A DNA stretch of 64,000 nucleotides from Patescibacteria group bacterium UBA924 (lineage in GTDB: Bacteria > Patescibacteriota > Microgenomatia > UBA1400 > PJMF01), in assembly GCA_002293725.1 (NCBI GenBank), contig DBDU01000019.1, positions 11,792 through 75,791 on the forward strand, given 5' to 3'. The notes below the pieces were generated by a model. That model ran no database searches and was not told where the DNA came from. It worked only from the letters and a program-made list of their open reading frames with translations. Below are positions 6,166 to 60,013 of this stretch, piece after piece (within the stretch, counting starts at the first letter, position 1; the number at the start of each line of letters is the position of its first letter). The position numbers and the translations under genes were made by a program.

Positions 6166-6182
6166 CAGTGTACGCTACTTCT

Positions 6183-7313: not shown

Positions 7314-7314
7314 C

Positions 7315-8409: not shown

Positions 8410-8417
8410 ACAAGGAC

Positions 8418-11188: not shown

Positions 11189-11195
11189 GCCAGCA

Positions 11196-12236: not shown

Positions 12237-12238
12237 AG

Positions 12239-13558: not shown

Positions 13559-13561
13559 AGA

Positions 13562-14533: not shown

Positions 14534-14535
14534 GA

Positions 14536-16014: not shown

Positions 16015-16018
16015 GATC

Positions 16019-16996: not shown

Positions 16997-16999
16997 GAC

Positions 17000-18247: not shown

Positions 18248-18278
18248 AATTCTAATCGTTTCTCTCTGGCATTATAAC

Positions 18279-20111: not shown

Positions 20112-20117
20112 AGCTGA

Positions 20118-23574: not shown

Positions 23575-23622
23575 GACGCTCTGTACATAGTACAGTAGCT
23601 GTCATATTCATTTCAATATTCG

Positions 23623-24435: not shown

Positions 24436-24452
24436 ACGAGATCTCCTCTGCT

Positions 24453-30071: not shown

Positions 30072-30075
30072 ATGA

Positions 30076-31200: not shown

Positions 31201-31220
31201 GGCATTACAGACGCGAGGTC

Positions 31221-31676: not shown

Positions 31677-31698
31677 GAGGCTCCTTTATCTTTATGTA

Positions 31699-36988: not shown

Positions 36989-36991
36989 AGT

Positions 36992-37975
36992 CTATAGTGG
37001 ACGAAGCACTCGGCTGGCCTGTTTATATATTGCCGCTCGATGCGCGTCACGAATCATTGTACCAAACAGAATGATTCGTAACAGGATACCAATCCCGAGG
37101 ATCAGCTTTAAAATGGGTTTTTGCCAGATTGGTTTATGTTTAGCCCAGATATAAATATACCCTTTAAGCTCACCGATAATGGCATTTTTCGAGGAAGAGC
37201 TGGCGCTGCCATAGTGGATAACTTTGGCTGAAGGCAAGATAGCCACATCCCAATGATGTGACTTGGCCCTCATGCAGAACTCAATATCCTCGCCATACAT
37301 AAAGATACTACTGTCAAGAAGTCCAGCTTCCAGGAAGACTGCTCTTCTGATCATCACAGCAGTTCCCCCTACCCAATCGACGAGGTATGGTTTTGAGCCT
37401 TGATGATGGTGCGCATTCCGACCAGTGTGCTGAGTGGATGGTAAGAACTTACCGATCACCGGAATATCGTCTAAGAAAAGCATGTGCGTGGTGAGTGAAA
37501 AAAGGGTGGGAAACGAGCCTCCCTGAGCCTGAAGACTGCCATCGGGATTAAGAAGTTGAGCGGCTAGGACGCCCAAGTGATCCAGTTTATCTCTCGCTTC
37601 AGCTAAAACGGCTGTCTCAAGATTACTTTGTGACATGCTAAAGGTAGCAATCATCTGAGCGAGTGCATCTTCTTGGACGACCGTGTCAGAATTAAGCAGC
37701 AGTACGTACTCACCTTTGGAACGTTCAATAGCTTTATTGTTAGCTCCCGCGAAGCCTAGATTAGCTTGGTTTTTGATTAAGTGAAGACGAGACGAGCTTT
37801 TCACTAGCTTTTCTACTGCTTCGACACTGCCATCAGTCGAGTTGTTATCAACTACCCAAATGTCTGTCTTTTGATCAAGTTCAGGAGAGCGCTGTAAAGA
37901 TTCCTCAACTGAAGCAAGGGTTTGAAGCGTCAATGCTTTGGTGTTGTAGGAAACAATAACAATGCTTAACAACAT
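36992..37975 (-). CDS. Glycosyltransferase family 2
   Basis: LSIVIVSYNTKAL...VVDNNSTDGS, 327 aa. Confidence 0.85.
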   Translation of the reverse strand: MLLSIVIVSYNTKALTLQTLASVEESLQRSPELDQKTDIWVVDNNSTDGSVEAVEKLVKSSSRLHLIKNQANLGFAGANNKAIERSKGEYVLLLNSDTVVQEDALAQMIATFSMSQSNLETAVLAEARDKLDHLGVLAAQLLNPDGSLQAQGGSFPTLFSLTTHMLFLDDIPVIGKFLPSTQHTGRNAHHHQGSKPYLVDWVGGTAVMIRRAVFLEAGLLDSSIFMYGEDIEFCMRAKSHHWDVAILPSAKVIHYGSASSSSKNAIIGELKGYIYIWAKHKPIWQKPILKLILGIGILLRIILFGTMIRDAHRAAIYKQASRVLRPL

Positions 37976-37979
37976 ACGT

Positions 37980-38579
37980 TTATTGGAACCAACGGGCGCG
38001 GCCCAGCCGATAGCTATACTCCGTCAGGCCTCGCTGTGCGATCTGTTTGGCTGGTACGCCACCCACCACCGTGTTCTCAGGGACATCTTTAGTAACCACG
38101 GCTCCGGCAGCGACCACAGCTCCTTTGCCTACGGTGACTCCTGGAAGGACTATGGCTCGTGGACCGATGAAAACATAGTCTTCAATCTGGGTCTTAGCTT
38201 CGATAGCAGTAAAGTGGGGATCACGAATATCATGTTGGGAGTTGTAGATCATGGCTCCGGTGGCAATATCCACGTGGTCACCAATTAGCAATGGTGCGCG
38301 GCCATCTAAGACCACTTGTTCACCAATAATAGAGTCTGTACCAATTTTTACGCCTCGTGGATCATAAATACGAACGCGCATGTGAAGCGTTGAACCAGTG
38401 CCAATTCGCATTCCAGCTAAACGATAAAAAAAGCGACGGAGATGATGCAGTGGTAGCTCGCCAACTCCCCACCACAAAAAGCCAGTGACAAACTCTAACC
38501 AAATTGAGGATACACGACCTTGAACTTTTTGAGCTACTTGGGTGGTATTAAGTGGTTGCCCGTGTTTATCTTTCAACAT
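37980..38579 (-). CDS. Hexapeptide-repeat (left-handed beta-helix) sugar O-acetyltransferase
   Basis: Hexapeptide repeats [15 protein letters not shown]...[13 protein letters not shown]...[28 protein letters not shown], 199 aa. Confidence 0.8.
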
Positions 38580-38624: not shown

Positions 38625-39656
38625 TTAACCTCGCTTGGGAACGCGTTTACCAAGATGCATATATCCTGAGTCAGAAATAATTCTTCCTTTTGGAGTGCGA
38701 TTAATAAAACCGATCTGAATAAGGTAAGGTTCTAACACTTCTTCGATAGTGCCGGGATCTTCACTTAAGGTAGCGGCGATCGTGGCGAGACCAACAGGAC
38801 CACCTGCATGTTTATCAATGATTAACTCTAAAAACCGACGGTCATTTTCGTCTAGTCCCAGTGGGTCTACCCCTAAGCGGTCGAGTGCTTCTTGAACAAC
38901 TTTGGGCGTAATAACATTCTGAGCTTTAATTTGACTAAAATCGCGAACGCGTTTGAGTAGTTTAAGAGCGATACGCGGTGTGCCTCGGGCACGTTGGCTA
39001 ATAACCAATGCGCTGTCGGGGTCGAGCTCAACGCTTAACTTTTGTGCCGCTTTTTGCAAGATAACTAAGAGCTCTTCAGGACGGTAGTACTCCATTCGGT
39101 GCGTGACGCCAAAACGATCTCGAAACGGTCCAGTCAACGAGCCAAAGCGAGTCGTCGCGCCTACTAAGGTGAACTGTGGTAAGTCTAATCGAATGGTTCT
39201 GGCCGAAGGTCCTTTACCTAAAACAATATCAAGTGCAAAGTCTTCCATGGCAGGATAGAGCGTTTCTTCAACTGCTTTAGGTAGTCGATGAATCTCATCG
39301 ATAAACAGTACGTCTCCTGGTTGAAGATTAGTCAGAATTGCTGCTAGGTCGCCTGCTTTTGCGAGGGCTGTCCCAGAGGTAATTTTGATATTTGTCCCCA
39401 TCTCTTTGGCGATTAAGTGAGATAAGGTAGTTTTCCCGAGTCCCGGTGGCCCATAGAGTAAGACGTGATCGATGACTTCTTGACGAGCTTTAGCTGCTTC
39501 AATCGCGATCCGCAGAGACTCTTTGACGGCTGACTGACCAAAAAACTCATCCCACTGACTTGCACGCAAGCTAGTTAGCAGAACTTCATCCTCACTGACT
39601 GACTCAAGAGCTTGGTGTGGATCAAATGGTGGCTGGAGTGAGTGATCATCAATCAT
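38625..39656 (-). CDS. ruvB: Holliday junction branch migration ATPase RuvB
   Basis: [13 protein letters not shown] Walker A and the AAA+ RuvB architecture, 343 aa. Confidence 0.95.
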
Positions 39657-40237
39657 AATCTAGTCAGGTGCGGAAGTGCTTCTTTTAAGATAGCAGCCGT
39701 CGTTTTGTTCTCTACTTCTAGCTGTGGTAAGACTTTATCAACGTCACGTTCGGCAAAGCCTAGTTGAAGAAGTGCTTCTTTGACCTCTTGGTGTTGTGCC
39801 GAAAGTGGCTGTAGATCTATATCTTTCAAAGCTCCTAGCTTGCCGCGGAGTTCAATAATAATTTTTTGGGCCAGCTTTTTACCGACTCGTGGAACTTGAC
39901 TAAAAAAACCAATCTCAGCCTGCTGAACTGCGTTGACGATCTCACTAGGAGTGAAGTTTAGTATCTGTAGCGCAGTCTTCGGACCTACTCCAGAGACATC
40001 TAACAACAACTCAAACACCGATTGCTCTTCTCTATTCGCAAAACCAAACAGTTCGAGCGCATCTTCTTTGACATGTGTATGAATGAAAAGCTCGACTTGG
40101 CCGTCTTCTCCTACCAATTGATAGTGTCGCTCTGGAATGTTAACGCCATACCCTACTCCCCCACAGACTACGATCAGTCCTGCGGGTTGACGGAGAGCTT
40201 GTCCTTTGAGGTAAGCAATCATACGCAGACTATACAC
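39653..40237 (-). CDS. ruvA: Holliday junction DNA helicase subunit RuvA
   Basis: MIAYLKGQ start (probably at 40222), HhH motifs ([11 protein letters not shown]), 194 aa. Confidence 0.9.
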
Positions 40238-40745
40238 TAGTCGGCGTTCGAACGGCTGTCAACGCGACGCCAATTGCGTCAATGGTATCGTCAATCTCTT
40301 GTTCAACTTTTTGCCGTAAAGCCAAAGGGATGTTGCCCAATTGAAGCAGCACCATCTTGCGCATTGCCGTTTTATCGGCGCGACCATTCCCAGTCACACA
40401 AGATTTAATCGTTCCTGGATTAAACTCTTCAATACTCACTTGATGCTCGAGTAAACACGCAATAGTTAGCCCGCGAATCTCAGCAACCGCTAGAGCAGTA
40501 GTCACATTTTTAGAGAAGAAAAGCTGCTCCATTCCTGCTTTCGTTGGACGGTAGCGATCCAGCAGTTGCTTAAGTGTCTGTTGGATTTGAGCGTAGCGTT
40601 CAAGACGACTTTTTTTGCGATCAGTTTCGACACAACCGCAGTTCAGCAGAACTACTTGACCTTGAGTCACACTCAGCACAGCCCAACCGAAACGGTCGTA
40701 CCCAGGATCGATACCTAAAATAATACTAGGGACACTGTTTACCAT
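40230..40745 (-). CDS. ruvC: Holliday junction resolvase RuvC
   Basis: ILGIDPGYDRFGWAV RNase-H-like N-terminus, 171 aa. Upstream of ruvA in a ruvCAB arrangement. Confidence 0.9.
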   Translation of the reverse strand: MVNSVPSIILGIDPGYDRFGWAVLSVTQGQVVLLNCGCVETDRKKSRLERYAQIQQTLKQLLDRYRPTKAGMEQLFFSKNVTTALAVAEIRGLTIACLLEHQVSIEEFNPGTIKSCVTGNGRADKTAMRKMVLLQLGNIPLALRQKVEQEIDDTIDAIGVALTAVRTPTSV

Positions 40746-41880
40746 GATCTGTCGCGACTTGAATCATCTCTTGCAAGATAATCTCAGCAGAGCGCTGCCA
40801 ACTAAACTTCTTCAGTTGTAGACGACCTTTCTTGAGCAGAACTGCTCGCCCACGAGCAGTTAACTTAAAAACTTCTTGGAATGTGTTTGCTAACTCTTCT
40901 GTGTCGGTAGGCGTAACTTGGAAGCCAGCCTCTCCCATTACCTCAGGTAAGCTCGAAGAGTTGGCTGAGATGGGGAGAGTTCCATGAGCCATGGCTTCTA
41001 AAGGCGGGATGCCAAATCCTTCGTATTGACCGATCAAAACTGTACACTCGCTCTTCTTGTAAAGAAGTTCTTTTTGGGCGTCTGTGACGTAACCGAGTAA
41101 ATGAATACGATCCTTGTACGCTGAATGTTGAGCGGCTCCAAGTATATCTTTTGCCAACCAACCAATTTTGCCAGCAATTACCAACTGTGGGGTGCTCTTT
41201 TTAGAAGAGTATTTATCACAAAAAAGAGAGAAGGCATGAATCAACTGAACTAAGTTTTTTCGTGGCTGAAGTGTGCCTACATATAAAATAAATGGGTCCT
41301 TAATTCCTGCTTCTTTTTTTAACCAAATTAAAGAGGCCTTCTCTGTAGCAGCGGCAGTAGGTAGTGCTGGATATGCCACAAAAACGTCATCAGCCTTTCG
41401 CTTATATGTTTTGACAACTTCTTCTTTAGTGAACTCACTAATGGAGAGGACTTTATCAGCATGTTTGACGCTATAGCGTGTCCATTCCTTCAGCTGTAAG
41501 TAGTCTTTACGTTTGAACTGTTTAGGATACTTTAAGAAAGCGAGATCCATGACTGATGAGATATACGGGACACTACTGACACGCGGGGCATAATGGCCTG
41601 GTGTAAAGAAGACGTCGTACTTTTGGCGCTGGAGAAAGAGATGCATCGGTAAACCAATTTGGGTCCAGAGTGGTCGTGGAGTAACTACTTGATATCGCCA
41701 GCCTTCCCGCTCCGCTGGTAAGTCTGCTAAACAAGATGAAGAGAGCAAGACAGTCCAGCTGTACTCTTGTTTTTCTCGAGTCAGTTTTTCTAAAGCGATG
41801 AGAAGCTCATAAGCATAGACATTGCTGCCTACTCGTTGGGTTGTATTGGCTTCATTTCCATCAATAGCAAAGTGATACAT
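40726..41880 (-). CDS. Glycosyltransferase family 4
   Basis: EGFGIPPLEAMAHGTLPISAN, 384 aa. Confidence 0.82.
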   Translation of the reverse strand: MYHFAIDGNEANTTQRVGSNVYAYELLIALEKLTREKQEYSWTVLLSSSCLADLPAEREGWRYQVVTPRPLWTQIGLPMHLFLQRQKYDVFFTPGHYAPRVSSVPYISSVMDLAFLKYPKQFKRKDYLQLKEWTRYSVKHADKVLSISEFTKEEVVKTYKRKADDVFVAYPALPTAAATEKASLIWLKKEAGIKDPFILYVGTLQPRKNLVQLIHAFSLFCDKYSSKKSTPQLVIAGKIGWLAKDILGAAQHSAYKDRIHLLGYVTDAQKELLYKKSECTVLIGQYEGFGIPPLEAMAHGTLPISANSSSLPEVMGEAGFQVTPTDTEELANTFQEVFKLTARGRAVLLKKGRLQLKKFSWQRSAEIILQEMIQVATDHGKQCP

Positions 41881-41912: not shown

Positions 41913-43058
41913 CTACCTACCTTGGTGCAGAAGCAGAGCCTTGTGGTACACCTTACACGTTTCTTCTGCCACGCGGTACCAGTTAAATAGCTGCAAACGA
42001 ATAATCATTTTTTGCAAACGACGACGTTGTGCTTCTACGTTCTCACCGAGAATCGTCTTGATTCCTTTACGAATACTCTCGACCGATTCTGGATTAACCA
42101 GCTCCGCAGCATTGCCAGCTACTTCGGGCATAGCTGAAACATTCGAAGTAACGACTGGTGTGCCAAAGTGGAAAGCTTCCAAGATCGGTAGGCCAAAGCC
42201 TTCATAGAGACTAGGGTACAACAGCAGCTCCGCTTCACCATACAGAACCGCTAGCTCTTCATCACTTACTTTTCCTAGAAAACGAAGCTGAGGGCTTTTT
42301 AGCACTTGGCCTAGCTCTTCTGTGTCATCCCAGCCAGCCGCGCCTGCGACAAGGAGTTGGACTTCTTTGCGCAGTGGCCACCAAGCCTCAATTGCCCGAC
42401 GTAAGTTTTTTCGTGGTTCACGTGTCCCTACACACAGAATAAAAGGTTGAGTGAGCTGCAGTTTTTTCTTTAACGCTGTTTCTTTTTCTTCCGTCAGCTG
42501 CTGGCCGACTTGGATGTACTCTTGCGGCAGACTTTCATAAACGACGTGGACATCTTGAGCTCTAAAGTGAAGCAGTTCTACGATGTCTCGCTTCGTTGCT
42601 TGGCTGACAGCAATAATTTGAGCGTGACGTTTTTTGAGCTCTTCCCAGGATTTTTGATGGAGTTTCAGGATACGAGGATGAGCTGTTTCGGGGTACTTTA
42701 AGATAGCTAAATCATGAATTGTAGACACAATTGGTAAGTTTTTATCAGGTGGCTGTAACCAATCCCAGGAATGAAAAACTTGTACATCTGGAAAAACCTT
42801 CTTAATCGGGTTTTGATGTAAAGAGTTCCATAGCACTTCTTGGATCCGCGGTGGATATGACTGAATAACGACTTTATTGCGACTACTCTTACCTTTCAGT
42901 TCAGTCGCTAATGCTTCGAGTCGTTTCTTTTGTCGTAGACTTGAGCCATATAACCGTAATTCGACGTCACTCCGTTGACCCAGTGCTCGAACTAAGTTGC
43001 CCGTGTAACGAGAAACGCCGCGATCGTAGATGATGGAGGTGATATCAATGCCGATCTT
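41913..43058 (-). CDS. Glycosyltransferase family 4
   Basis: MKIGIDITSIIYDRGVSRYTGNLVRAL (GT4 N-terminal motif) and EGFGLPILEAFHFGTPVVTSN. The track start at 43112 overlaps the upstream gene; the Met at 43058 is more likely. Confidence 0.82.
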   Translation of the reverse strand, partial: KIGIDITSIIYDRGVSRYTGNLVRALGQRSDVELRLYGSSLRQKKRLEALATELKGKSSRNKVVIQSYPPRIQEVLWNSLHQNPIKKVFPDVQVFHSWDWLQPPDKNLPIVSTIHDLAILKYPETAHPRILKLHQKSWEELKKRHAQIIAVSQATKRDIVELLHFRAQDVHVVYESLPQEYIQVGQQLTEEKETALKKKLQLTQPFILCVGTREPRKNLRRAIEAWWPLRKEVQLLVAGAAGWDDTEELGQVLKSPQLRFLGKVSDEELAVLYGEAELLLYPSLYEGFGLPILEAFHFGTPVVTSNVSAMPEVAGNAAELVNPESVESIRKGIKTILGENVEAQRRRLQKMIIRLQLFNWYRVAEETCKVYHKALLLHQGR

Positions 43059-44634
43059 CATAGCACGAACGACAGTATTGTGAAAAACCGATGATTTGTC
43101 TAGCCTGAGCATACACCCTGATCATCCCTAAGGGTGCGTTTCCTTGAATAACATCAACTTGTTGAAAGCCATATCGTTCGAGGTCAGCTTGGATGATGCG
43201 TTCTGGATCGGAAAGGTCTTGAAGATAGTCAAAGACTAAGATGTAGTCATAGTCTGTCAGCTGTTTAATTAACTGACGCTCAGGACTGGCAGGATCATGA
43301 CTGACAATAAAAACGCCTGTGGCGGCTGTGGGAAAGTTGGTGTCATTGTACCAAGCCCAGCTGGCGAACTCTTGTGGGAAAGAGAACAAAACGATGCTAT
43401 CAGCAGGGCTGTACTTTTCGTCAATATAGGCATGAACCTCTCGCCAGTTTTCGCGCTGGTACTTCGTTTGAGTAAAGTAGGAAAAGCTGGAAAATAGGTT
43501 GATAAGTAAAAGTAGTAAACCAAGACTAATGCCGCTCCAACGGAGAGTGATGGCTTTTTTTTCAATAGCTTGAGTAATCAGATAGCTGAAAGCTAAGTAA
43601 AATGCTGGGAGGGCAAAAAGAACTCGCTTAGGCTGGAGGATCGGGATCCAAAAGGAAACCACCCAAGCTAAGGCAATGGGAATGACGCCCCAACATAACA
43701 GCAGAAAACTTTTTTGCCAGAATGACCTTTGATGACGAAGTTTCCAAGTGAGATAAAGACCTAATACCACAATACCGCCAAAAGTGATGAAGTACAGAGG
43801 ATCTGCTGAGAGATCTAAAACGCCATAGATGAACTTGCCCACGGTCAAACCGAGTGCTTTAAGTTGAGTGAAGCTGACGACTTCTTCCCAACCGGGAAAG
43901 GTAGCCCGCAGTTGCTGGCCGGCTTGTACTTGATCTAAAAACGAGGGCACCCATGGTGCGAAGCTAAGAACAGCGAGAAGATTACTGATCACAAAACCAG
44001 CCAGTACTGTTCGGTTCCTCAAGTGAGTAAAAATCACGTAGCAAAACTGCCCCACTAGTACAAAAGGATAAAGGTAAGAGCTGTAGAGCCCCAAGGCACT
44101 CCAGAACCCAAGCCAGATATATTTTTGCCAAGCAAAGGCACCTTTTTGACCAAAAGATAGAATCTGTAACCAACTGAGAAGAGCGAACACTGTTGGTAGA
44201 CTGTACGGGCGCAGCTCTTGAGAGTAAAAAATGTGAAAAGAAGAGGTAGCTAAAAGCAGCCCAGCCATCCAGCCAGTCCCAGCTGAAAAGTACTTTTGGC
44301 CAATTTTGATGGTTGCCCAAAGAGTAACTAAACCCGGGATAAGTGCCGCTCCTAACCTTAGCCAAGCTTCATGATTGGAAACGCGTAGTAAGACAAAAAC
44401 AATCAAGTGAATCAGCGGAGGCTGGAAGTCGTCACGAATTTGTAGCTGTTGTGAAAACGGACGAGCGCTTTCAAGAGCTTGAGCAGCTTCATCGAGCCAG
44501 AGTGAACCATCCAACTGTGGTAAGCGCATTACCAAACCCAACAGAAGAAGTATGGCCAATAAAGTAGCTGGCTTAATCTTTTTAAGTTGGATTATGAACT
44601 CAGTGAGTAAGGATTTCACACTTCTCATTATCAT
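43045..44634 (-). CDS. GT-C fold membrane glycosyltransferase, ArnT-like (GT83/GT39)
   Basis: 529 aa, about 12 transmembrane helices, first-loop acidic motif LWLDEAAQ, C-terminal soluble domain. Confidence 0.65.
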   Translation of the reverse strand: MIMRSVKSLLTEFIIQLKKIKPATLLAILLLLGLVMRLPQLDGSLWLDEAAQALESARPFSQQLQIRDDFQPPLIHLIVFVLLRVSNHEAWLRLGAALIPGLVTLWATIKIGQKYFSAGTGWMAGLLLATSSFHIFYSQELRPYSLPTVFALLSWLQILSFGQKGAFAWQKYIWLGFWSALGLYSSYLYPFVLVGQFCYVIFTHLRNRTVLAGFVISNLLAVLSFAPWVPSFLDQVQAGQQLRATFPGWEEVVSFTQLKALGLTVGKFIYGVLDLSADPLYFITFGGIVVLGLYLTWKLRHQRSFWQKSFLLLCWGVIPIALAWVVSFWIPILQPKRVLFALPAFYLAFSYLITQAIEKKAITLRWSGISLGLLLLLINLFSSFSYFTQTKYQRENWREVHAYIDEKYSPADSIVLFSFPQEFASWAWYNDTNFPTAATGVFIVSHDPASPERQLIKQLTDYDYILVFDYLQDLSDPERIIQADLERYGFQQVDVIQGNAPLGMIRVYAQARQIIGFSQYCRSCYEDRH

Positions 44635-44664
44635 TACTTTAGGTGATTTGAAAAGGCAACGCCA

Positions 44665-44693
44665 CTGACAATCTCAGAGGAGTTCGCTATACT
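44665..44693 (+). promoter_or_regulatory. Candidate sigma70-type promoter of the UXS-like gene, possibly giving a leaderless mRNA
   Basis: CTGACA (44665-44670), a 17-nt spacer, then TATACT (44688-44693). The ATG at 44701 lies 8 nt after the -10, so the predicted transcription start is at or within a nucleotide of the start codon. Confidence 0.35.
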
Positions 44694-44700
44694 GCGTGCT

Positions 44701-45714
44701 ATGTCTAGACCACTTCCTTCTGATGTCAGCCAGTTCTATGCTCAAAAAAAAGTTCTTGTCACAGGTGGAGCAGGCTTTATTGGCTCTCACCTCACAGAGC
44801 TGCTGCTTCAATTGGGAGCCGAAGTAACTGTAGTCGATAATTTTTTAACTGGTGCTCGCCAGAATATTGCTCACTTGACTGCAGAAGTGATTGAGGCCGA
44901 TGCCTCTCAACCTGTAGAAACGTATCTGCCAGCACAGTACACTCCTGATCTTGTTTTTCACTTTGCTTCGCCAGCAAGCCCGCCAAAGTATCAAGCTCAC
45001 CCTGTCGAAACATACTTAGTAAATAGCATGGCGACACATCAGCTTTTACAGTATCTGAAGTCTAAAGCTCCTAAGGCTCGTTTCTTGTTTGCTAGTACCT
45101 CGGAAGTGTATGGTGATCCACAAGTTCATCCCCAGCCGGAAAGTTATTGGGGAAATGTAAATCCTAATGGAGTTCGGTCTTGTTATGACGAAGCAAAACG
45201 CTTGGGCGAGACGATCTGCGGCGTGCATAGTCGTGACTTCCAGATGGATGTTCGTATCGTACGTATCTTTAATACATATGGTCCCCGTATGGATTTAGAA
45301 GATGGTCGGGTGATTCCTGATTTTATTAAACAAGCCTTGGCTGGTCAGCCATTTCAAGTGTATGGAGACGGCACACAAACGCGCTCGTACTGTTACGTAG
45401 ACGACTTAGTTGATGGGATTATTTTGTTAATGCAGAAAGACAGTGCCAAAGGACAAACAGTTAATCTTGGCAATCCTGGGGAGTTCACCGTTTTGCAGAC
45501 GGCTGAAGTGGTTAACCGAGTGTCTGCTGAAGTAAAAGGTGTTGAGCCCCCGTCTCCTCCCCCAATCGAGTTTCGACCATTACCCCAAGATGACCCGCTT
45601 CGTCGACGACCTGATATTCAAAAAGCAAAAGAAGTATTGGGTTGGGAGCCTGTTATTTCCTTCGAGGAAGGTCTCAAAAAGACCATTACTTTTTTCCAGT
45701 CGCGACAAGGTTAA
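44701..45714 (+). CDS. UDP-glucuronate decarboxylase (UDP-xylose synthase-like) / ArnA-C-domain-like short-chain dehydrogenase/reductase (SDR)
   Basis: KKVLVTGGAGFIGSHL...VVDNFLTGARQNIAHL (UXS-type DNFFTG motif), catalytic YxxxK (YDEAKR), 337 aa. Only plus-strand gene in the window. Confidence 0.8.
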   Translation: MSRPLPSDVSQFYAQKKVLVTGGAGFIGSHLTELLLQLGAEVTVVDNFLTGARQNIAHLTAEVIEADASQPVETYLPAQYTPDLVFHFASPASPPKYQAHPVETYLVNSMATHQLLQYLKSKAPKARFLFASTSEVYGDPQVHPQPESYWGNVNPNGVRSCYDEAKRLGETICGVHSRDFQMDVRIVRIFNTYGPRMDLEDGRVIPDFIKQALAGQPFQVYGDGTQTRSYCYVDDLVDGIILLMQKDSAKGQTVNLGNPGEFTVLQTAEVVNRVSAEVKGVEPPSPPPIEFRPLPQDDPLRRRPDIQKAKEVLGWEPVISFEEGLKKTITFFQSRQG

Positions 45715-47315
45715 TCAACGCTATTCAGCGTTTTAATGAAGCCGGACAAGTTACGAGCTCTTTCTATTACAATTGCCCACCCCGAAGTTAGCCACTGTTG
45801 AGCTGTTGTGTGTTTGAGAGTAAGCAGCCACCAGTTTTTGGTATCTTGCCAGGCTTTTTGGCTAGGGTCTCGGCGAGAAGTTTGCTGGCCAATGTGTGTA
45901 ATCTCCACCTCCGGTAAAGCGAGATGCTGCCAGCCTCGTTTCTTCATTCGCAGTCCTAAATCTATATCTTCCAAGTAGGAACCAAAGCGTTCGTCATACA
46001 AACCAACTTCTTCTAAAGCACGACGGTTATAAATAACGGCCGCAGCGTTATTGGCGTCAATAGATTGACCGTTATTGGTAGTAAGTACCTTCGCTTTTCC
46101 CTTAGGTAAAACGGTAATTCCGAGTGACTCGACTTCTTTGTTGGGCTTGAGTACCTGTGGAGCAATACTGCCGATTTTTTTCTGAGGGTGCTGCTCTAAA
46201 TACTCAACTAATGGTTCAAACCAACTTTTTTTGGCGAAGGTATCGTCGTTGACGGTTCCAATGTACTTACCGCGCGCACGGCGGAAGCCAAGATTGACCG
46301 TGTGAGCAAAGCCTTTATTTTGCTCTAAGCAAATAAACACTACCTCAGGATACTTCCGGCGCAAGTCAGTGATGTCGTTGACACTAGTGACGATGATAAG
46401 CTCGTGCTTAGTAAAGGTAAGAAGATGAAGCTGCTGTTCTAAAAACTTCTCCAGCAAAGGACGTTGCATGTTTGGAACAACGAGTGAGAGCTCAATCTGA
46501 CTATCGGCGGATAACAGGACGTTGTGAGAAAAACGTCTTGTGTTCCAGTTTAATATCCACTTTTGAATGCTCCCTAGGTTTTGATCGATAAACTGGCGCA
46601 TGGAAAGGAAAAAGAGTTCAGTACGTTTTTGTGTATGAAGTTGGTCAAAAGATAGTGCTCCCTGATGGATAACTCGTTGGGAAGTGACTGTAAAGGGTTG
46701 ATGCTGATTGAGTAACTGGAGACTAAGTCGACTGTCTTCAAACCAGACAAAGTATCGCTCGTCCCACCCTCCTAACTGTTCAAAAATGCTCCGCTTAATC
46801 AGTAAACAGGCACCTGGCAGCGTCTTTCCTTGTGAAAAAGGAGGCTGTCCTAAGCGATTGAGTGGCGTGAACTCCCAAAGCAAGCTCATGAAGCTAGGAA
46901 TATCTTTTTGGTAACGCGGATCTATCTCACCGTTGGGAGTGATCAATGTGGGTGAGAGAGCCGACAGTGATTGTTGTTTGGCAGTTGTAAGCAATGCTTC
47001 GATTTCAGCGGTGGAGATATGAACGTCCGTATTTAGAAATAGAATGTACTTGCTGGAATTGACATAGCTTCCGCTGTTTCCTGCTTTCCCAAAACCTTGA
47101 TTGTGTTTATTAGTGTAAAAAGTGACCCGTGGGAAACTTCTTTCCAGACGAGTAGTATCCCCACCATTGTTTACTACGCAAATACAATCGTGAATATCTT
47201 TAAGTTCTGTCAGCTGTCGTTCTAAAGCGGCTGGAGTATTCCAGTGAATAATAACGATGGATAAAAGCGAGCTATCTATCACTCCACTCCCCAACTGTAT
47301 AACGTGGCTGGCCAA
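45711..47315 (-). CDS. Two-domain glycosyltransferase family 2
   Basis: 534 aa with two GT-A halves (LSIVIIHWNTPAAL... and LSLVVPNMQRPLLEKF...). Its stop codon overlaps the UXS stop on the opposite strand. Confidence 0.75.
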   Translation of the reverse strand: MASHVIQLGSGVIDSSLLSIVIIHWNTPAALERQLTELKDIHDCICVVNNGGDTTRLERSFPRVTFYTNKHNQGFGKAGNSGSYVNSSKYILFLNTDVHISTAEIEALLTTAKQQSLSALSPTLITPNGEIDPRYQKDIPSFMSLLWEFTPLNRLGQPPFSQGKTLPGACLLIKRSIFEQLGGWDERYFVWFEDSRLSLQLLNQHQPFTVTSQRVIHQGALSFDQLHTQKRTELFFLSMRQFIDQNLGSIQKWILNWNTRRFSHNVLLSADSQIELSLVVPNMQRPLLEKFLEQQLHLLTFTKHELIIVTSVNDITDLRRKYPEVVFICLEQNKGFAHTVNLGFRRARGKYIGTVNDDTFAKKSWFEPLVEYLEQHPQKKIGSIAPQVLKPNKEVESLGITVLPKGKAKVLTTNNGQSIDANNAAAVIYNRRALEEVGLYDERFGSYLEDIDLGLRMKKRGWQHLALPEVEITHIGQQTSRRDPSQKAWQDTKNWWLLTLKHTTAQQWLTSGWAIVIERARNLSGFIKTLNSVD

Positions 47316-48835
47316 AGTGAGTAAGGATTTTCGTCGTAGATATAGTGATCCGTTTTCAGCTCAGTGTGTAAGTGTTCTTGCGCGTACGCAATTACATCAG
47401 CAGGTAGTGAGGAGTCATCGATCCACAAGAAACCGCGTGGATATGTAGCCATCACATTTTGAAGATCAGCCACGGTAGATATAAGGCGAATATTATGTTG
47501 ATCAGCCACTACTTTTTCATTCAATTCGTTAAGCGAGAAAGCAGTTTGTTTATGAAATCCTTCGTCTTCCCAACGAAAGATAAAGTATGAGTTATCCTCA
47601 CCGAGGTACCAACGAGGCCGATCAGGCCATGTTTCGATCACAGCAGTTTGCCCTTGGGCAAACTGCCCTTTCTGCTGAATGATGTTGTAAGCCTGATGAT
47701 AGTCAACTAAGGCAATGTCCCGCATATCCTTGTTGACTGAGTAGTACGGTTTTGGTTTCAAAACGAAGTTGTCTCCGTTAACAAGAATGAAAAGTACAAG
47801 AATACAGAGTACGCCTAAAGTGATTGTTTTTCGCGGCGCTTGTGAACTGTTTCTCGTAACACCATCTGCAATAGCAGAAGCTCCCACGGCTGCAAAAAGG
47901 AAGAAGTACTGAATCACTGGAACGAGGTACTTGGTCATATAGTGACCAAAGAAAAAGGTAACAAAAACTACCTGTAAGGCCAGCAGAATGAAGATAGCCC
48001 AAGGTGTTGACCGAAAATGTCGAAGTTGCCAGAGGATTCCTATAAAAAGAAGTAAAGTAAGAAGAGTTTGTTCACGCCATAAAAGTGCGTGGTAGTACCA
48101 TAGATTGTTGTGTAAAGCGAAGAAACCAAAAGTTACTCCGTTTGTGAGTAACTGAATAATTCCTAATCGATATGCCAGAACTGCTCCTACTACTACAAAC
48201 ACGAGTCCTAAGATGTGTGTAGATCGTCTACTGAGTAGTCTTCTTAACTCTCTTGGTTTGGTAATAACAAAGTCGATAGCAATGGCAATCACCACGAAAG
48301 CGAACAGCACATGGGTAAAGAAACCAAGGAGAGTCAGTATGCTAAGACTCAGTAACCATTTTGCTTGAAACTTCTCTTTCCACTGATAGTAACTTAGTAG
48401 AGCAAGAACGCCTAAAAACTGTTGTAATACGTAACCCCGAGCTTGAGTCGACCAAGTAATTTCCAAATACGAACACGCACACAATACTGCCGCAACTACT
48501 GCTACACGAGTCGAGAAAAGTTTCTTTCCTAAAAGAAAGAGCGCAGCCGGAAGAAGGGCTCCAAAGATAACACTAGGAAAGCGTGCTGTCGTTTCACTGA
48601 CGCCAGCTATCGCAAACGAGACGGCAATGAGTAAGTGAGTGAGTGAGTTGTTTGCTTCTATAAATGGAAGAAGATTACTTTGTCCTTCAAGTACGATTTC
48701 TTTTAGCAGTAGTGCCTGTCTGCCACTACTAAACTCGTCTACCCAAAAAGGATGGTTAATGCGAAGAGCTGAAGCACGTAAGCCAAAACTAAAAATGCTA
48801 AGCAGAATCAGGAAGATAAGTATTTTTTTTGTCAT
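47279..48835 (-). CDS. GT-C fold membrane glycosyltransferase, ArnT/PMT-like
   Basis: 518 aa, about 12 transmembrane helices, first-loop motif HPFWVDEFSSGRQA, C-terminal soluble domain. Confidence 0.65.
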   Translation of the reverse strand: MTKKILIFLILLSIFSFGLRASALRINHPFWVDEFSSGRQALLLKEIVLEGQSNLLPFIEANNSLTHLLIAVSFAIAGVSETTARFPSVIFGALLPAALFLLGKKLFSTRVAVVAAVLCACSYLEITWSTQARGYVLQQFLGVLALLSYYQWKEKFQAKWLLSLSILTLLGFFTHVLFAFVVIAIAIDFVITKPRELRRLLSRRSTHILGLVFVVVGAVLAYRLGIIQLLTNGVTFGFFALHNNLWYYHALLWREQTLLTLLLFIGILWQLRHFRSTPWAIFILLALQVVFVTFFFGHYMTKYLVPVIQYFFLFAAVGASAIADGVTRNSSQAPRKTITLGVLCILVLFILVNGDNFVLKPKPYYSVNKDMRDIALVDYHQAYNIIQQKGQFAQGQTAVIETWPDRPRWYLGEDNSYFIFRWEDEGFHKQTAFSLNELNEKVVADQHNIRLISTVADLQNVMATYPRGFLWIDDSSLPADVIAYAQEHLHTELKTDHYIYDENPYSLWPATLYSWGVE

Positions 48836-49950
48836 ATGGGTACGTAAGTAAACTCAACTGGGTTACTGACTCTGTCTTCAATCAGAACTTGAATATTGCC
48901 AGTTGGTGTCGTGTTTGGATCTACCACAAAAATAATCTCACTCTTACTCCATCGTAAGACTCGTTGTGGGAATATTCTACCGTTTTTATCGATTAACTGT
49001 ACTTTACTCGTCTCATACTGAGCTTCTCCAAAGTTCTGACCGTAGATTCTCACGCCTGTCCACATTTGAGCTTTATGATGACTAAGATCGAGAATATGGG
49101 GCATGGTACGTAGAGAAACAGTCAGTTGATTGAATAGTAGAATGCAAGCTAATAAGATTCCGGAAGTGGCTAGTGTTACGGTGTACGGAAAGAACTTGGC
49201 TGCTTTCCTGGCAACCAGCACTAAAATAACACCTACGACCGCACAGATAATAAGCAAGATACTATAGAAGTGTGTTGTTACTTCATTCCAAAATGGAACA
49301 GGAGTAAAAAAGTTTTTAAAGAAAGTAAACTGACTTCTTAACAGAAGTGAGAATGCAACTACGCCAGTAATTGAAGTAAGGATACTGAGCAAGACTGTAA
49401 TCTGTTCAAATACGTCAACAGTATTAGCAAGAAGCTGGTGACTAACTTGATAATCAGGGTGAGCAAATAACTTCTTCGCTCGTTCTAACTCTTTTGTGCT
49501 GAACTTCTTCGATCGCAAATGATACTTTAATGAAACGAAGAATAAGAAGAGTGTTTTATGAATATCCGTTAGTGTTTCATAAAGCAAGCTTTCCTCTTCC
49601 TCTAATTGACGACGGTAGTGAACAAGATTAAGAACAACTCCATAACCAAAAAAGAAAAAAGCTTGGATAGCAAATTTTTCTGCAAGTACAAATGCATCAG
49701 CCACACTACAAACAAAGGCAAAAATTAAAAATGCGGCCGAAATCCAGACAGCATCTTTTCGTCGTAGTTTATAAAGAGCCGCAAAAAGGAAAAAAATTGC
49801 GTACAGAATACCAATTCTTAGTGACGTATTAAGCGTCATAAAGAAAGTAACACTAATACTGACACCGACAGTAGCAATCAGGACAAAAGTTCTGAACACT
49901 TCAATTAATGTTAGGGTGTGCTGGAGGTTTTTCTTGAGACGCGCTTTCAT
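48832..49950 (-). CDS. Polytopic membrane protein with C-terminal IPT/TIG-like beta-sandwich domain
   Basis: 372 aa, about 8 transmembrane helices. The C-terminal roughly 90 aa (VRIYGQNFGEAQYETSKVQLIDKNG...SEIIFVVDPNTTPTGNIQVLIEDRVSNPVEFTYVPI) matches the IPT/TIG pattern. Confidence 0.45.
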   Translation of the reverse strand: MKARLKKNLQHTLTLIEVFRTFVLIATVGVSISVTFFMTLNTSLRIGILYAIFFLFAALYKLRRKDAVWISAAFLIFAFVCSVADAFVLAEKFAIQAFFFFGYGVVLNLVHYRRQLEEEESLLYETLTDIHKTLFLFFVSLKYHLRSKKFSTKELERAKKLFAHPDYQVSHQLLANTVDVFEQITVLLSILTSITGVVAFSLLLRSQFTFFKNFFTPVPFWNEVTTHFYSILLIICAVVGVILVLVARKAAKFFPYTVTLATSGILLACILLFNQLTVSLRTMPHILDLSHHKAQMWTGVRIYGQNFGEAQYETSKVQLIDKNGRIFPQRVLRWSKSEIIFVVDPNTTPTGNIQVLIEDRVSNPVEFTYVPI

Positions 49951-52220
49951 TTCACTTTAGTTTTTCTCATCTGCTGTAAGCCGATAAGACACAAAACAAA
50001 AAATAATACCACTCCACTAGAAAATAACCCTAAGATAAAGAGTAACTGGGGAATAAATACAATCACATAATCTGTCCCGTCCGTGGAGTTAGGAAGTTGC
50101 CAACTATTCGCATATCCCATGAAACGGTCATGCGTCTGACCTGATTGATCATTCATGAACAAGAAAGGAACAAAACGAAGAGAGACAAATCCATTAAGTG
50201 GAGTACAGGTTTTTACTATACTGTTGCGATAGTTTTGTTGACCTATCCAAAAGTCGATTTGAATGTGTTGTGTTTCTACTGACTGTTCTTGACATGGTGG
50301 CTGAATAAAGCTGGGACGTTTAAAAACTTTCCAGTTTGGATCATATGAGTCAAGAAAAGCGATTGAAGACCCATCAGTGGTGTCCAGATTTTGTATGACA
50401 TAAATACTGTTGTTAACCTTTTGGTAGGTTAAGTCACGTCCAACAAACTGCCCAGTTTTGTACTGCTCTGGAACAGAGTATATCTCAAGCTGACCAAGAT
50501 CTTGTTTTGATGGCAAGAAAGATCCTAACATCGGTGTGAGCTTTTCTGGCAGGTAGGCGGGATCGAGGCGACCGTAGCTTAACGAGCTTTGAACATTGCG
50601 ATTGAGATCAAAGTCCTTACGATGCAAAATAGTTCCAATGTTGAAGTAACCTAGACTTTTGAGAAACTCGTTGGGGTTTTCCTCTTCTAGATAGGTATAT
50701 GCTTCCTCGATTGACGCAAATGCCTTTTCTTGCACCGACGGTCCGTATCCTTTGGTGTAACCTATACTTGATTGGTCAAGAAGTTGAGCCGTTAACCAGC
50801 CCCCTTCATATCCCCAATTGTAGTTATCGAACGGCGAGTGATTACGTGGCAGCAGCAGTACTCTATCTTGATGGTGTCGTTGGAGCTGAGTGAACTCTTG
50901 CCAGTATTCCGGAATGTTCACATAGTACTTTTGAGGAAAGATCGCTTGTGTGTAGTACGGTAAGCCAAGCACAAAAACGCTGATAGCTAGCAGCCCAATC
51001 AGCACTCTCTTGTAAGGTATCTTAATACTTTGGATGGCGAATGCTAGGAGTACACTCATACTAAGTACTGCCCACAGCGGAAACTTAATATCACTCGAAC
51101 GATAGAGGGCGAAAAGTGGAAGGTACTTTAGCAAAAAAGCATATACTTCTCCAAAAGGCGGAGCTGTCCCCTTACTCAAAAAAACGCCAATAAAGAAAAG
51201 TACAAAAAAGAAATCAATTTTGGCATGTTGTTGAACAAGGCGCTTACGAGCAAGTAAGGCTGTGGTGATTAACAGGACAAGGCCTAAGCCAATAAACTGT
51301 GACAGTGGTCGGTAGTACGGATAGTAGCTGTAGTACAACTGACCGACTTCATTCGCTTTATCGAACCAATAGTATTGATTAAATGTCAGTCCGCGAAGAA
51401 TTGGATTGACCAGGTAATTTGGGTGAGTAAAGTTTGTTTCATAGACGACTGCCCCACCAAAGGCTGATTGGTAGAACAACAGTAAGGGAATCAGCCAAAA
51501 TGCATTAGCCGTGAAGAGGGCCGCCATAATGCTTAGACCTTTTCCTGTCCATTCCTTATAACGTTCCGGATGAAGATAGAGAAGGTAAAGTAGGTACAAG
51601 AAGGGAAAAATAGCTACTAGGCCAAACAGACCCAAGTTTTGAGCAAGCGGGGTGGCAAAAAAAAGACAAAGACTTAGAAGAAACCAGTTGCGGAGTGTCG
51701 CCTTGGTATCAATAAACTTTAAAGAAAGTTTGGCAATCAACGGGAAAAACATGAAAGCGTATGAGTAGCTAGGTAACCAAGTAAACATCATTACCATGAA
51801 CGGATTACAGATGTAGAACAAGCTAGCAATGCTGTAGGTGTACGTATTTTGTTTTGGTAAGACGTACCGGAGTAAGTTGTAGCAGCCGAAGAAACTTAAA
51901 CTCAGAGTGGCTCCAATAAAGAGTTTTTGGGCAATAACCACCCCAAATACAGAAGAAAGTGCTGCCATCAAAAGATGGTAGTGAAAGGAGATAAAGTAGA
52001 TATTTGGTAGACCAAAACCATACTCATTATTCCAGAGTGACATGTTTTTAATAAAAAAGCTCAAAGGTTCGGGGTTAGTTAGCGTCTCGCCACCAAGGAT
52101 AAGCTGATTCTGAGACGCCAACGTAAAACCGACCACAAAGAGTGCAACGGAGATAAGCCACGGAACCATTCTAGTGAAGAGTCGTATAGGTTTTTTTGTG
52201 GGCATTCTTTTCAAGGACAA
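49947..52220 (-). CDS. Large GT-C-like membrane protein, YfhO-like (N-terminal polytopic domain, extracytoplasmic domain, C-terminal transmembrane anchor)
   Basis: 757 aa. About 12 N-terminal transmembrane helices, a soluble region of about 300 aa, and a final transmembrane helix (LLFILGLFSSGVVLFFVLCLIGL), which is the YfhO topology. The true start may be an internal Met (52169 or 52205). Confidence 0.5.
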   Translation of the reverse strand: MSLKRMPTKKPIRLFTRMVPWLISVALFVVGFTLASQNQLILGGETLTNPEPLSFFIKNMSLWNNEYGFGLPNIYFISFHYHLLMAALSSVFGVVIAQKLFIGATLSLSFFGCYNLLRYVLPKQNTYTYSIASLFYICNPFMVMMFTWLPSYSYAFMFFPLIAKLSLKFIDTKATLRNWFLLSLCLFFATPLAQNLGLFGLVAIFPFLYLLYLLYLHPERYKEWTGKGLSIMAALFTANAFWLIPLLLFYQSAFGGAVVYETNFTHPNYLVNPILRGLTFNQYYWFDKANEVGQLYYSYYPYYRPLSQFIGLGLVLLITTALLARKRLVQQHAKIDFFFVLFFIGVFLSKGTAPPFGEVYAFLLKYLPLFALYRSSDIKFPLWAVLSMSVLLAFAIQSIKIPYKRVLIGLLAISVFVLGLPYYTQAIFPQKYYVNIPEYWQEFTQLQRHHQDRVLLLPRNHSPFDNYNWGYEGGWLTAQLLDQSSIGYTKGYGPSVQEKAFASIEEAYTYLEEENPNEFLKSLGYFNIGTILHRKDFDLNRNVQSSLSYGRLDPAYLPEKLTPMLGSFLPSKQDLGQLEIYSVPEQYKTGQFVGRDLTYQKVNNSIYVIQNLDTTDGSSIAFLDSYDPNWKVFKRPSFIQPPCQEQSVETQHIQIDFWIGQQNYRNSIVKTCTPLNGFVSLRFVPFLFMNDQSGQTHDRFMGYANSWQLPNSTDGTDYVIVFIPQLLFILGLFSSGVVLFFVLCLIGLQQMRKTKVK

Positions 52221-52746
52221 ACTGAACTTCCCAGGCTTTCAGGATACCAGAAAAGAGCCTCTCGTAGATACCAGGAAATTGATTTGCAAACCAATTAAAA
52301 AGACTATCTAAACCTGGAAGTAAGACAATCCTGAGTTTTCGTGATTTGAGAACAAGCCCATTCTGAAGATAGTAATCGAGATACTCAGGTTCAAATGCAT
52401 AGTAAGACCAAAAAGATTTATGGGTGAAGTGGTACGCGTAAGGGTTTGAGTAGTGTGGAACGATAATCGTAACTTCACCACCATCTTTGAGGACACGATT
52501 CACCTCATTGAGCATCTTAGCCGGGTCATTAACGTGTTCTAAAAAGTGAGACATGTAGACTTTATCCACAGTCCCATCGCTAAAAGGTAAGCCGTCTTTC
52601 TCTACATCGGCAACGATATCTACTCCCGGTTGAGCGATCAGATCAAGTCCTAAGTAACCCTCTTTCTTGTGAGGACCACAGCCGACATCAACATACAAGG
52701 GCGAAGGAAACTTTACTTTGGAAGAAGGTTTTTTCTTTTTAGTCAT
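52171..52746 (-). CDS. Class I SAM-dependent methyltransferase
   Basis: Motif I VDVGCGPHK, motif post-I/II region, 191 aa. Confidence 0.75.
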   Translation of the reverse strand: MTKKKKPSSKVKFPSPLYVDVGCGPHKKEGYLGLDLIAQPGVDIVADVEKDGLPFSDGTVDKVYMSHFLEHVNDPAKMLNEVNRVLKDGGEVTIIVPHYSNPYAYHFTHKSFWSYYAFEPEYLDYYLQNGLVLKSRKLRIVLLPGLDSLFNWFANQFPGIYERLFSGILKAWEVQFVLEKNAHKKTYTTLH

Positions 52747-53320
52747 GTCTTTTACTTTCCCAAACTTTCTTTTTGAGGTTGTACTGTTTGATCACTTGGG
52801 CAGGATTCCCAGCTACCACACTATAATTGGGGACGTCATGGGTGACAACACTGTTTGCGCCAACGACGCTTTGCTGACCAATAGTTACTCCTGGCATAAT
52901 TACACTGTTAATACCGATGAAAGAGCCCCGACCAATCTTGACTTTCCCTTTCGGTAGAAGTGGTTGCTCTTTAATGGGAGTGTTGGGATCTTGATAGTCG
53001 TGAATATGGTCACAGATGAACACTCTGTCTGAAAGCATGACATCGTCTTCAATTCTTACTTCGTCTAAGGCAGCCACGAAGAAGTGACTCCCAACTGCAA
53101 CATTCTTCCCTATTTTTAAGACAGGCTGCTGGTCGACGTTGGTTTGATGTCTAGTAAGGGCGAAGTAGGCACCCTCGGCAATGAAAGAGCTGTCTCCTAC
53201 TTGTAAGAGGTCAAAGTTCCATCCCTTAAAAGGAAACTTAATGACTGCTTTATTTCCTAAGTGAGGAAAAAAGAAGATCTTTTCTATTTGAGACAGGAGA
53301 CGAAGGATAAGTAACTTCAT
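52739..53320 (-). CDS. Hexapeptide-repeat acetyltransferase (left-handed beta-helix)
   Basis: IGRGSFIGINSVIMPGVTIGQQSVVGANSVVTHDVPNYSVVAGNPAQ. The track start at 53374 overlaps the upstream GT4; the Met at 53320 is likely. Confidence 0.78.
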   Translation of the reverse strand: MKLLILRLLSQIEKIFFFPHLGNKAVIKFPFKGWNFDLLQVGDSSFIAEGAYFALTRHQTNVDQQPVLKIGKNVAVGSHFFVAALDEVRIEDDVMLSDRVFICDHIHDYQDPNTPIKEQPLLPKGKVKIGRGSFIGINSVIMPGVTIGQQSVVGANSVVTHDVPNYSVVAGNPAQVIKQYNLKKKVWESKRHD

Positions 53321-56160: not shown

Positions 56161-56163
56161 AGA

Positions 56164-56982: not shown

Positions 56983-56984
56983 AA

Positions 56985-60002: not shown

Positions 60003-60013
60003 CATGCTCACTC

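Follow-up and report, generated by a model that had tools for sequence, protein, structure and literature searches.

UDP-xylose synthase and its glycosyltransferase neighbours in a Patescibacteria envelope-glycan locus

The stretch of 64,000 nucleotides analysed here (the window) comes from Patescibacteria group bacterium UBA924, a Patescibacteria (CPR) bacterium with a small genome of ~1.2 Mb, and contains part of a very large envelope-glycan locus; all genes of the window lie on the minus strand except one, encoding a UDP-glucuronate decarboxylase/UDP-xylose synthase (UXS). The question raised by this locus is which glycosyltransferases (GTs) receive the sugar made by UXS: cytoplasmic Leloir enzymes, which are able to take a nucleotide sugar directly, or, as an earlier note on this DNA had supposed, extracytoplasmic enzymes of the GT-C class supplied through a polyprenyl-phosphate carrier. 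The most useful finding is a new comparative result, namely that UXS, two GT4 enzymes, and one GT-C protein form a block conserved across Patescibacteria.

The UDP-glucuronate decarboxylase gene

The UXS gene and its surroundings contain the following features.
44701..45714, plus strand: UXS, UDP-glucuronate decarboxylase/UDP-xylose synthase of the extended short-chain dehydrogenase/reductase (SDR) class, 337 aa, ATG start (PDB match, motifs, and an identical Joint Genome Institute (JGI) call)
44635..44700, no strand assigned: divergent intergenic region between the GT-C gene and UXS, 66 nt
43045-44634, minus strand: GT-C of 529 aa (GT-C529; Pfam PMT_2, 32.5 bits; annotated 'GT39'), conserved divergent partner of UXS
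41913-43112, minus strand: GT4b, cytoplasmic Leloir glycosyltransferase (Pfam Glycos_transf_1/Glyco_transf_4; PDB matches MshA, PimA, and PimB')
40726-41880, minus strand: GT4a, second conserved Leloir glycosyltransferase of the block (Pfam, PDB, and synteny)
38625-40745, minus strand: RuvB, RuvA, and RuvC
45711-47315, minus strand: two-domain GT2 of 534 aa with an N-terminal transmembrane (TM) helix, convergent with UXS

The earlier note had begun the gene at 44665, which is 36 nt too early: the ATG codon is at 44701, position 44665 coincides with a −35-like hexamer, and JGI, in calling genes on the source contig, arrived at the identical open reading frame (ORF), 44701-45714 (+). Pfam and NCBIfam scans covered the window ORFs of at least 100 aa, excluding those nested in longer genes. 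All other plus-strand ORFs of at least 100 aa are nested in Pfam-supported minus-strand genes, so that UXS is, as the note had it, the only plus-strand gene. No tRNAs were found in the 64-kb window. A promoter-like pair, CTGACA-17-TATACT, ends 7 nt 5′ of the ATG of UXS (44665-44700), being a match to the sigma-70 consensus only; a pair so near the ATG would give a leaderless or nearly leaderless UXS mRNA. At the other end, UXS (+) and the 534-aa GT2 (−) converge with their stop codons overlapping in the palindrome TTAA (45711-45714), and a weak terminator-like hairpin (45670-45684) lies within the 3′ end of UXS.

In Pfam, the 337-aa protein matches Epimerase and GDP_Man_Dehyd and consists of a single SDR domain. 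Its best match among solved structures is human UDP-glucuronate decarboxylase 1 (PDB entry IDs, 2b69 and 4gll; E-value, 1e-96; 327 bits), compared with 137 bits for the next-best structure family (GalE-like), and the identity to human UXS1 is 51.5% across 305 aligned residues. The motifs GGAGFIGSH (residue 22), STSEVYG (residue 132), YDEAKR (residue 162), and QTR (residue 226) are aligned with residues of the human enzyme, the mechanism of which requires the NAD-binding GxxGxxG together with the catalytic T/S-x-E, Y-x3-K, and Arg. Briefly, the two proteins share the full-length extended-SDR match, the NAD glycine motif, the catalytic residues, and the length, and the window protein differs in being slightly extended at its N-terminus and in carrying eight inserted, proline-rich residues near residue 290. 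On the NCBIfam models, the protein scores 88 bits for ArnA (PRK08125; cut-off, 777) and 91 bits for the Ralstonia-type UDP-4-keto-pentose/UDP-xylose synthase (PRK11908; cut-off, 294). Both scores are far below the cut-offs and, together with the high score to human UXS1, place the enzyme in the UXS type and not in the ArnA type. The description 'UXS/ArnA-C-domain type', given in the earlier note, is therefore retained in its first half and dropped in its second. Altogether, 44701-45714 is a genuine UDP-xylose synthase gene as judged from its family and its intact catalytic residues, with UDP-xylose as the predicted product. The gene itself is routine, being a further member of a known enzyme family; bacterial Uxs also occurs in Sinorhizobium and Bacteroides. 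Compared with the known UXS systems, the one described here has no Ugd nearby and is paired with a GT-C instead of standing beside a UDP-xylose 4-epimerase or in a capsule locus.

The block shared by related loci

For the comparison, 80 species-representative loci were collected with UXS as the seed (UXS 53–67% identical; most of them from Patescibacteria by their titles or synteny), their ORFs were called and matched to the window proteins, and adjacency was counted in the 71 loci having at least 2.5 kb upstream. A recurrent block was found in the order RuvB-RuvA-RuvC-GT4a-GT4b-GT-C, followed by UXS in the divergent orientation. The orthologue of GT-C529 is the direct divergent neighbour of UXS in 47 of the 71 loci, and is located at position −1 or −2 in 57 (~80%); the spacer between the two genes in the 47 divergent loci has a median of 66 nt, equal to that of the window. 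The two GT4 genes lie beside GT-C and UXS in ~60 of the 80 species loci, GT4b being the most conserved GT of the block (41–76% identity). When GT-C was used as the seed instead, UXS was the divergent neighbour in four of six contexts, and the remaining two retained GT4-GT4-RuvC with UXS gone. RuvB-RuvA-RuvC (from 38625) is syntenic with GT4a-GT4b-GT-C/UXS in ~57 of the 80 species loci; the recombination operon travels with the glycosylation block. Because the block also includes RuvABC, its synteny is partly historical and not purely functional.

Several relatives depart from this arrangement. In six of them (e.g., locus L009, 9105-9977), the gap between GT-C and UXS is occupied by a nucleotidyltransferase carrying a ribbon-helix-helix domain at its N-terminus, and the same interval holds a 225-aa GT2 in L074, a 237-aa ORF in L078, and a 224-aa unannotated protein in L005. 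In L053 (CP011212, labelled candidate division TM6), UXS, GT-C, GT4b, GT4a, and RuvC are on one strand and not divergent; either the block occurs outside Patescibacteria, or the record is misassigned. Also, dozens of metagenome-assembled genomes titled 'uncultured Pseudomonadales' (in L005-L082) carry the Patescibacteria-type block on small contigs, and these labels look wrong.

On the 3′ side of UXS, the gene content varies among relatives (Wzx, a large Wzy_C protein, or other genes), as would be expected if this sugar-nucleotide gene supplies a glycan locus of variable make-up. The two-domain GT2 that converges with UXS in the window is not conserved beside UXS in relatives. With the phylum-conserved block on one side and variable glycan genes on the other, UXS therefore marks a boundary. 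The segment beyond the two-domain GT2 contains the following features.
47279-48835, minus strand: GT-C (Pfam PMT_2) of 518 aa (GT-C518), in the strain-variable segment
48832-49950, minus strand: unassigned membrane protein of 372 aa (~6 TM helices; weak TIG match at the C-terminus), in the variable segment
49947-52220, minus strand: AftD-type GT-C of 757 aa (Pfam GT-C_AftD, 53.9 bits), in the variable segment
52171-56982, minus strand: methyltransferases, an acetyltransferase, and further GTs

GT-C518 has one full-length homologue among 160 related loci, and the AftD-type GT-C has no homologue in them. The GC content is 0.39–0.42 in window positions 48000-58000, compared with 0.44–0.48 elsewhere, and the genes in this low-GC region (GT-C518, the TIG membrane protein, the AftD-like GT-C, and the methyltransferases) have almost no counterparts in relatives; 48000-58000 probably represents a glycan segment that is strain-variable or was acquired.

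GT-C529, the partner of UXS, belongs to a family of at least 635 homologues that are annotated at most as 'GT39 family' or 'mannosyltransferase', with Patescibacteria as the named sources, and in which the motif WLDEAAQ in the first loop is invariant. A profile built from 20 family members found no match at E ≤ 1 among the PDB sequences. The AlphaFold2 model (predicted local distance difference test (pLDDT), 87.5; predicted template-modelling score (pTM), 0.86) was matched by Foldseek to STT3, ALG12, ArnT, AglB, PglB, and PMT (E-value, ~1e-7; TM-score, ~0.5–0.56). On this model, GT-C529 is a member of the GT-C fold class and is 'ArnT-like' at the fold level only; by sequence it is not ArnT (GT83).

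These fold matches bear on one way in which GT-C529 and UXS could be connected. The two GT4 enzymes would use UDP-xylose to build a short xylose-containing oligosaccharide on a lipid carrier, and after flipping GT-C529 would act in the manner of an oligosaccharyltransferase or ligase, handing over the complete unit to an acceptor (protein, lipid, or wall). The matches include the oligosaccharyltransferases STT3, AglB, and PglB, level with ArnT at a TM-score of ~0.55; moreover, GT4a-GT4b-GT-C is a fixed trio, and the window contains a phosphoglycosyltransferase initiator and Wzx-type flippases. However, the fold match reaches no further than the GT-C class and does not tell oligosaccharyltransferases from ArnT or ALG enzymes, Pfam gives PMT_2, the sequence profile finds no solved relative, and no acceptor protein was identifiable. 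We therefore regard such en-bloc transfer as improbable.

The DPM1-like GT2 and its module

A route through a lipid carrier would require a polyprenyl-phosphate glycosyltransferase. The window has one candidate, within a module near its 3′ end.
56985-57806, minus strand: DPM1/GtrB/ArnC-family GT2 of 273 aa, putative polyprenyl-phosphate sugar synthase
57803-59089, minus strand: MOP/Wzx-type flippase of 428 aa with ~12 TM helices (Pfam Polysacc_synt)
59094-60026, minus strand: GalE-like epimerase
60014-61270, minus strand: PIG-V/Gpi18-like GT-C of 418 aa (Pfam domains of homologues)
61239-62972, minus strand: polytopic membrane protein of 577 aa, possibly a GT-C (invariant HDGExH loop-1 motif)
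62969-63976, minus strand: GT4

The presence of an ArnC-like GT2, claimed in the earlier note, is borne out by 56985-57806, which matches dolichyl-phosphate mannose synthase (DPMS), GtrB, and ArnC along the entire catalytic domain. Searched singly, the sequence matches Pyrococcus furiosus DPMS (E-value, 1.8e-10) and also GtrB and ArnC; a profile of 17 orthologues against the PDB gives DPMS (4.9e-19, positions 5-174), GtrB (1.4e-15), and ArnC (8e-13), so that the enzyme is nearer DPMS than ArnC. No TM helix was predicted for it in a hydropathy scan, and some DPM1-family members (human DPM1 and the catalytic domain of mycobacterial Ppm1) are also without one. Among the five GT2s of the window, it alone resembles polyprenyl-phosphate glycosyltransferases. 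The other four were considered as ArnC-like and rejected: the GT2 at 36992-37975 (327 aa, one C-terminal TM helix) has PDB and NCBIfam matches of the heparosan/chondroitin type, and no match to DPMS, GtrB, or ArnC was obtained for the GT2s at 31699-32559 and 56164-56982 or for the two-domain GT2 at 45711-47315, whose adjacency to UXS is, as stated above, not conserved.

In the window, the DPM1-like GT2 sits 11 kb from UXS. Its own surroundings were examined in an independently seeded set of 80 metagenome loci (orthologues 47–56% identical), in which the order is GT4, the 577-aa membrane protein, the 418-aa membrane protein, the MOP flippase (~415–445 aa), the GT2, and then variable GTs; where the flank suffices, most related loci have a flippase of this size directly upstream of the GT2. 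The 418-aa family has a conserved FDGxHY...GY motif, and, since many of its members carry PF04188 and are named Gpi18-like mannosyltransferase, the 418-aa protein is taken to be a PIG-V-type GT-C. The PIG-V family uses dolichyl-phosphate-mannose. The 577-aa family has an invariant HDGExH motif in loop 1 and no Pfam or NCBIfam match. Against the GT-C529 family, hhalign gave probabilities of 12% for the 577-aa family and 0.8% for the 418-aa family. As the DPM1-like GT2 comes with a flippase and a PIG-V-like GT-C consumer of its own, and as the window also encodes ManC, polyprenyl-phosphate-mannose would be its simplest product, and the module looks like a polyprenyl-phosphate-hexose system, most simply for mannose.

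The alternative is that UDP-xylose is the donor for this GT2, which would form polyprenyl-phosphate-xylose to be exported by the MOP flippase and transferred outside by GT-C529, in the manner of the Gtr and Arn pathways but with a neutral pentopyranose. ArnC, a member of the same GT2 family, takes a UDP-pentose, and, among the conserved genes of the block, UXS alone encodes a sugar-nucleotide-modifying enzyme; GT-C lies divergent to it in 47 loci and at −1 or −2 in 57 of 71. In addition, two independent gene orders join UXS of different clades to the flippase-GT2 pair. The order UXS-flippase-GT2 occurs in six of the 80 UXS-seeded loci (L004, L005, L010, L031, L046, and L073) and in L164, and the order flippase-GT2-UXS occurs in three of the 80 GT2-seeded loci (L090, L108, and L111), the UXS of which is of a different clade (352 bits to human UXS1; 45% identical to the window UXS). 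A protein of ~425 aa following UXS in several loci was considered as Ugd and proved to be a polytopic MOP/Polysacc_synt flippase. On the other side of the balance, the GT2 adjoins a true UXS in only about 3 of the 80 GT2-seeded loci and has the flippase and the PIG-V-like GT-C as constant partners, the distance to UXS in the window is 11 kb, RuvABC makes the synteny of the block partly historical, UXS is not adjacent in two of the six GT-C-seeded contexts, and no precedent was found in the literature searched. We therefore consider a lipid-linked xylose rather unlikely, and the proposal in the earlier note that a pentose is loaded onto undecaprenyl phosphate (Und-P) by the ArnC-like GT2 finds no specific support, the GT2 lying far from UXS in a module of its own.

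An Arn-type pathway with its aminotransferase encoded elsewhere in the genome was weighed as well; in that case the decarboxylase would release UDP-4-keto-pentose, to be converted into a sugar of the 4-amino-4-deoxy-L-arabinose (Ara4N) type for the ArnC/ArnT-like pair. DegT homologues are present within 10 kb of UXS in 9 of the 80 species loci, and none is present in the window. In L164 (1-4868) and L031 (9986-15804), the gene order is UXS, (a small ORF), flippase, DPM1-like GT2, GT4, and a DegT-family aminotransferase. Such neighbours of UXS would suit this pathway; however, glycan loci often contain DegT enzymes that serve unrelated amino sugars, and Patescibacteria are without a lipid A target. 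The identity of 51.5% to human UXS1 and the scores far under the ArnA and 4-keto-pentose-synthase cut-offs also argue against the release of the keto sugar. As the earlier note had stated, no ArnB-like aminotransferase or formyltransferase is in the window (Pfam scans of the ORFs; no tblastn match with a DegT query), nor is an aminotransferase or formyltransferase found in the 10 kb past its 3′ end. This pathway is accordingly very improbable.

The remainder of the window is made up as follows.
1-1742, minus strand: IleS-like ORF, running off the window start
2632-21713, minus strand: dcw cluster (cell division and peptidoglycan synthesis)
21970-27124, minus strand: NHL/fn3 protein, unassigned 270-aa protein, RecO, and DUF4012 protein
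27164-27787, minus strand: polyprenyl-phosphate phosphoglycosyltransferase (Bac_transf), initiator of a lipid-diphosphate-linked glycan (Pfam/NCBIfam)
27788-28927, minus strand: ManC-type mannose-1-phosphate guanylyltransferase, source of GDP-mannose (Pfam; TIGR01479, 303 bits, under the cut-off of 373)
28878-38579, minus strand: GT4s, GT2s, a PMT-type GT-C, a Wzy_C protein, and an acetyltransferase
33763-35190, minus strand: GT-C (Pfam PMT_2/PMT) of 475 aa

The earlier note had counted at least three GT-C enzymes; at least five were found (33763-35190, 43045-44634, 47279-48835, 49947-52220, and 60014-61270). Past the window end (locus L169, 1-8941) the locus goes on with another GT4, a GmaR-like GT2, and two or three further polytopic proteins of the Agl23/PMT_2 kind, which brings the GT-C-type proteins to at least seven within ~45 kb of the genome when the window and the next 10 kb are taken together. 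Within the dcw cluster, a 469-aa protein with no credible family match (9779-11188) lies between a MurD-like ligase and MraY, and a CofD-family gene (2-phospho-L-lactate transferase-like; 16019-16996) lies between two Mur ligases.

Possible routes of UDP-xylose and their significance

Our preferred reading, to which we give about an even chance, is that UDP-xylose is used directly by cytoplasmic Leloir GTs, with the GT-C enzymes drawing on a polyprenyl-phosphate-hexose. It is favoured because the two GT4s of the block are the sole conserved neighbours able to take a nucleotide sugar directly, because the conserved block is without a polyprenyl-phosphate GT2, the constant partners of which lie elsewhere, and because the places in which UXS and GT2 adjoin belong to the variable part of the locus, which may take up any sugar-nucleotide gene. 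In the predicted UXS reaction, the tightly bound NAD+ would oxidise UDP-glucuronate at C4, and decarboxylation would follow, with the resulting 4-keto-pentose being reduced to UDP-D-xylose. The users of UDP-xylose may be the two conserved GT4 enzymes and/or the GT2 and GT4 enzymes of the variable segment, and the xylose would go into a lipid-linked or lipid-anchored glycan. The hexose donor would be built by the DPM1-like GT2 and flipped by the adjacent MOP flippase, and the GT-C enzymes would act outside the membrane with this polyprenyl-phosphate-hexose, most simply mannose.

Several observations weigh against direct use. The tight divergent pairing of UXS and GT-C throughout the phylum stands out, as a GT-C is itself unable to use UDP-xylose. 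UXS-flippase-GT2 operons occur in 6 of the 80 loci and in L164, and flippase-GT2-UXS is found independently in L090, L108, and L111. No GT in the locus is assignable as a xylosyltransferase. Nor was a Ugd, as a source of UDP-glucuronate, found in the window, in the 10 kb beyond, or within 10 kb of UXS in the 80 relatives. The Pfam scans of the window ORFs gave no member of the Ugd, UbiA, DprE, and HAD-phosphatase families; likewise, Ugd, UbiA, and DprE were not found in the 10 kb past the 3′ end, and regular expressions for the catalytic motifs of Ugd, a crude test, matched no ORF of the window and the 160 related loci.

The locus can be compared with three kinds of known systems. Like the Arn pathway (ArnA-ArnB-ArnC-ArnT, forming Und-P-Ara4N), it combines a decarboxylase acting on UDP-glucuronate with an ArnC/DPM1/GtrB-family GT2 and with GT-C enzymes whose fold class is that of ArnT and PMT. 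In contrast to that pathway, the decarboxylase here is of the UXS type without a formyltransferase domain, ArnB, ArnD, and ArnE/F are not in the window, the GT2 is nearer DPMS than ArnC and lacks predicted TM helices, and GT-C529 has no match to ArnT at the sequence level. The resemblance to the Gtr systems (GtrA-GtrB-GtrC) and to actinobacterial Ppm1 with its GT-C mannosyltransferases consists of a putative polyprenyl-phosphate sugar synthase of the GtrB/DPM1 family beside a flippase and of GT-C enzymes including a PIG-V-like one. Unlike Gtr, however, the flippase is of the MOP/Wzx type and not GtrA, the GT2 is without a predicted membrane anchor, and the module is conserved in the phylum rather than being a serotype-converting add-on.

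The third comparison concerns lipid-linked pentoses. The view in the earlier note that such donors are hardly known outside mycobacterial decaprenyl-phosphate arabinose (DPA) is outdated: in many bacteria, GT-C enzymes (GT136) are supplied by Und-P-linked donors of ribo-, xylo-, and arabinofuranose, and these three-component systems (Und-P-Ribf/Xylf/Araf) are widespread (Kelly et al. 2024, PMC11127046). A UbiA-like synthase (PPPRS), joined in some cases by an SDR epimerase, forms the donors from phosphoribosyl pyrophosphate (PRPP), and a MATE flippase exports them (PMC11127046); because these PRPP-derived systems have been shown, lipid-linked pentoses are not confined to mycobacterial DPA. Both the PRPP-derived systems (PMC11127046) and DPA have in common with the proposed lipid-linked xylose that an extracytoplasmic pentose is taken from a polyprenyl-phosphate donor by a GT-C enzyme, whereas they proceed from PRPP by way of a UbiA-like synthase and give furanoses, and the proposed route would proceed from the pyranose UDP-xylose by way of a GT2. 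No part of the PRPP-based machinery was found in the window. For a polyprenyl-phosphate donor derived from UDP-xylose (Und-P-xylose or dolichyl-phosphate-xylose), no report from any organism was found in the literature searched, and nothing relevant on UXS or UDP-xylose in Patescibacteria was found there. Taken as a whole, the earlier interpretation keeps its gene inventory, to which the comparison adds the link between UXS and GT-C, while a plainer reading suits the data better than its lipid-carrier step.

If true, a lipid-phosphate-xylose route would be a new donor type for extracytoplasmic glycosylation. A phylum-wide three-component system of Patescibacteria, in which a lipid-linked pentopyranose would derive from a nucleotide sugar by way of the DPM1-like GT2, the MOP-type flippase, and the UXS-paired GT-C, is, in our estimate, a doubtful proposition. 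Patescibacteria are a huge and mostly uncultured group, the cell envelope chemistry of which is essentially unknown. The conserved block points to xylose as a constituent, conserved among these episymbionts, of a core envelope glycoconjugate. It also singles out four or five genes for study in the few cultivable, genetically tractable members.

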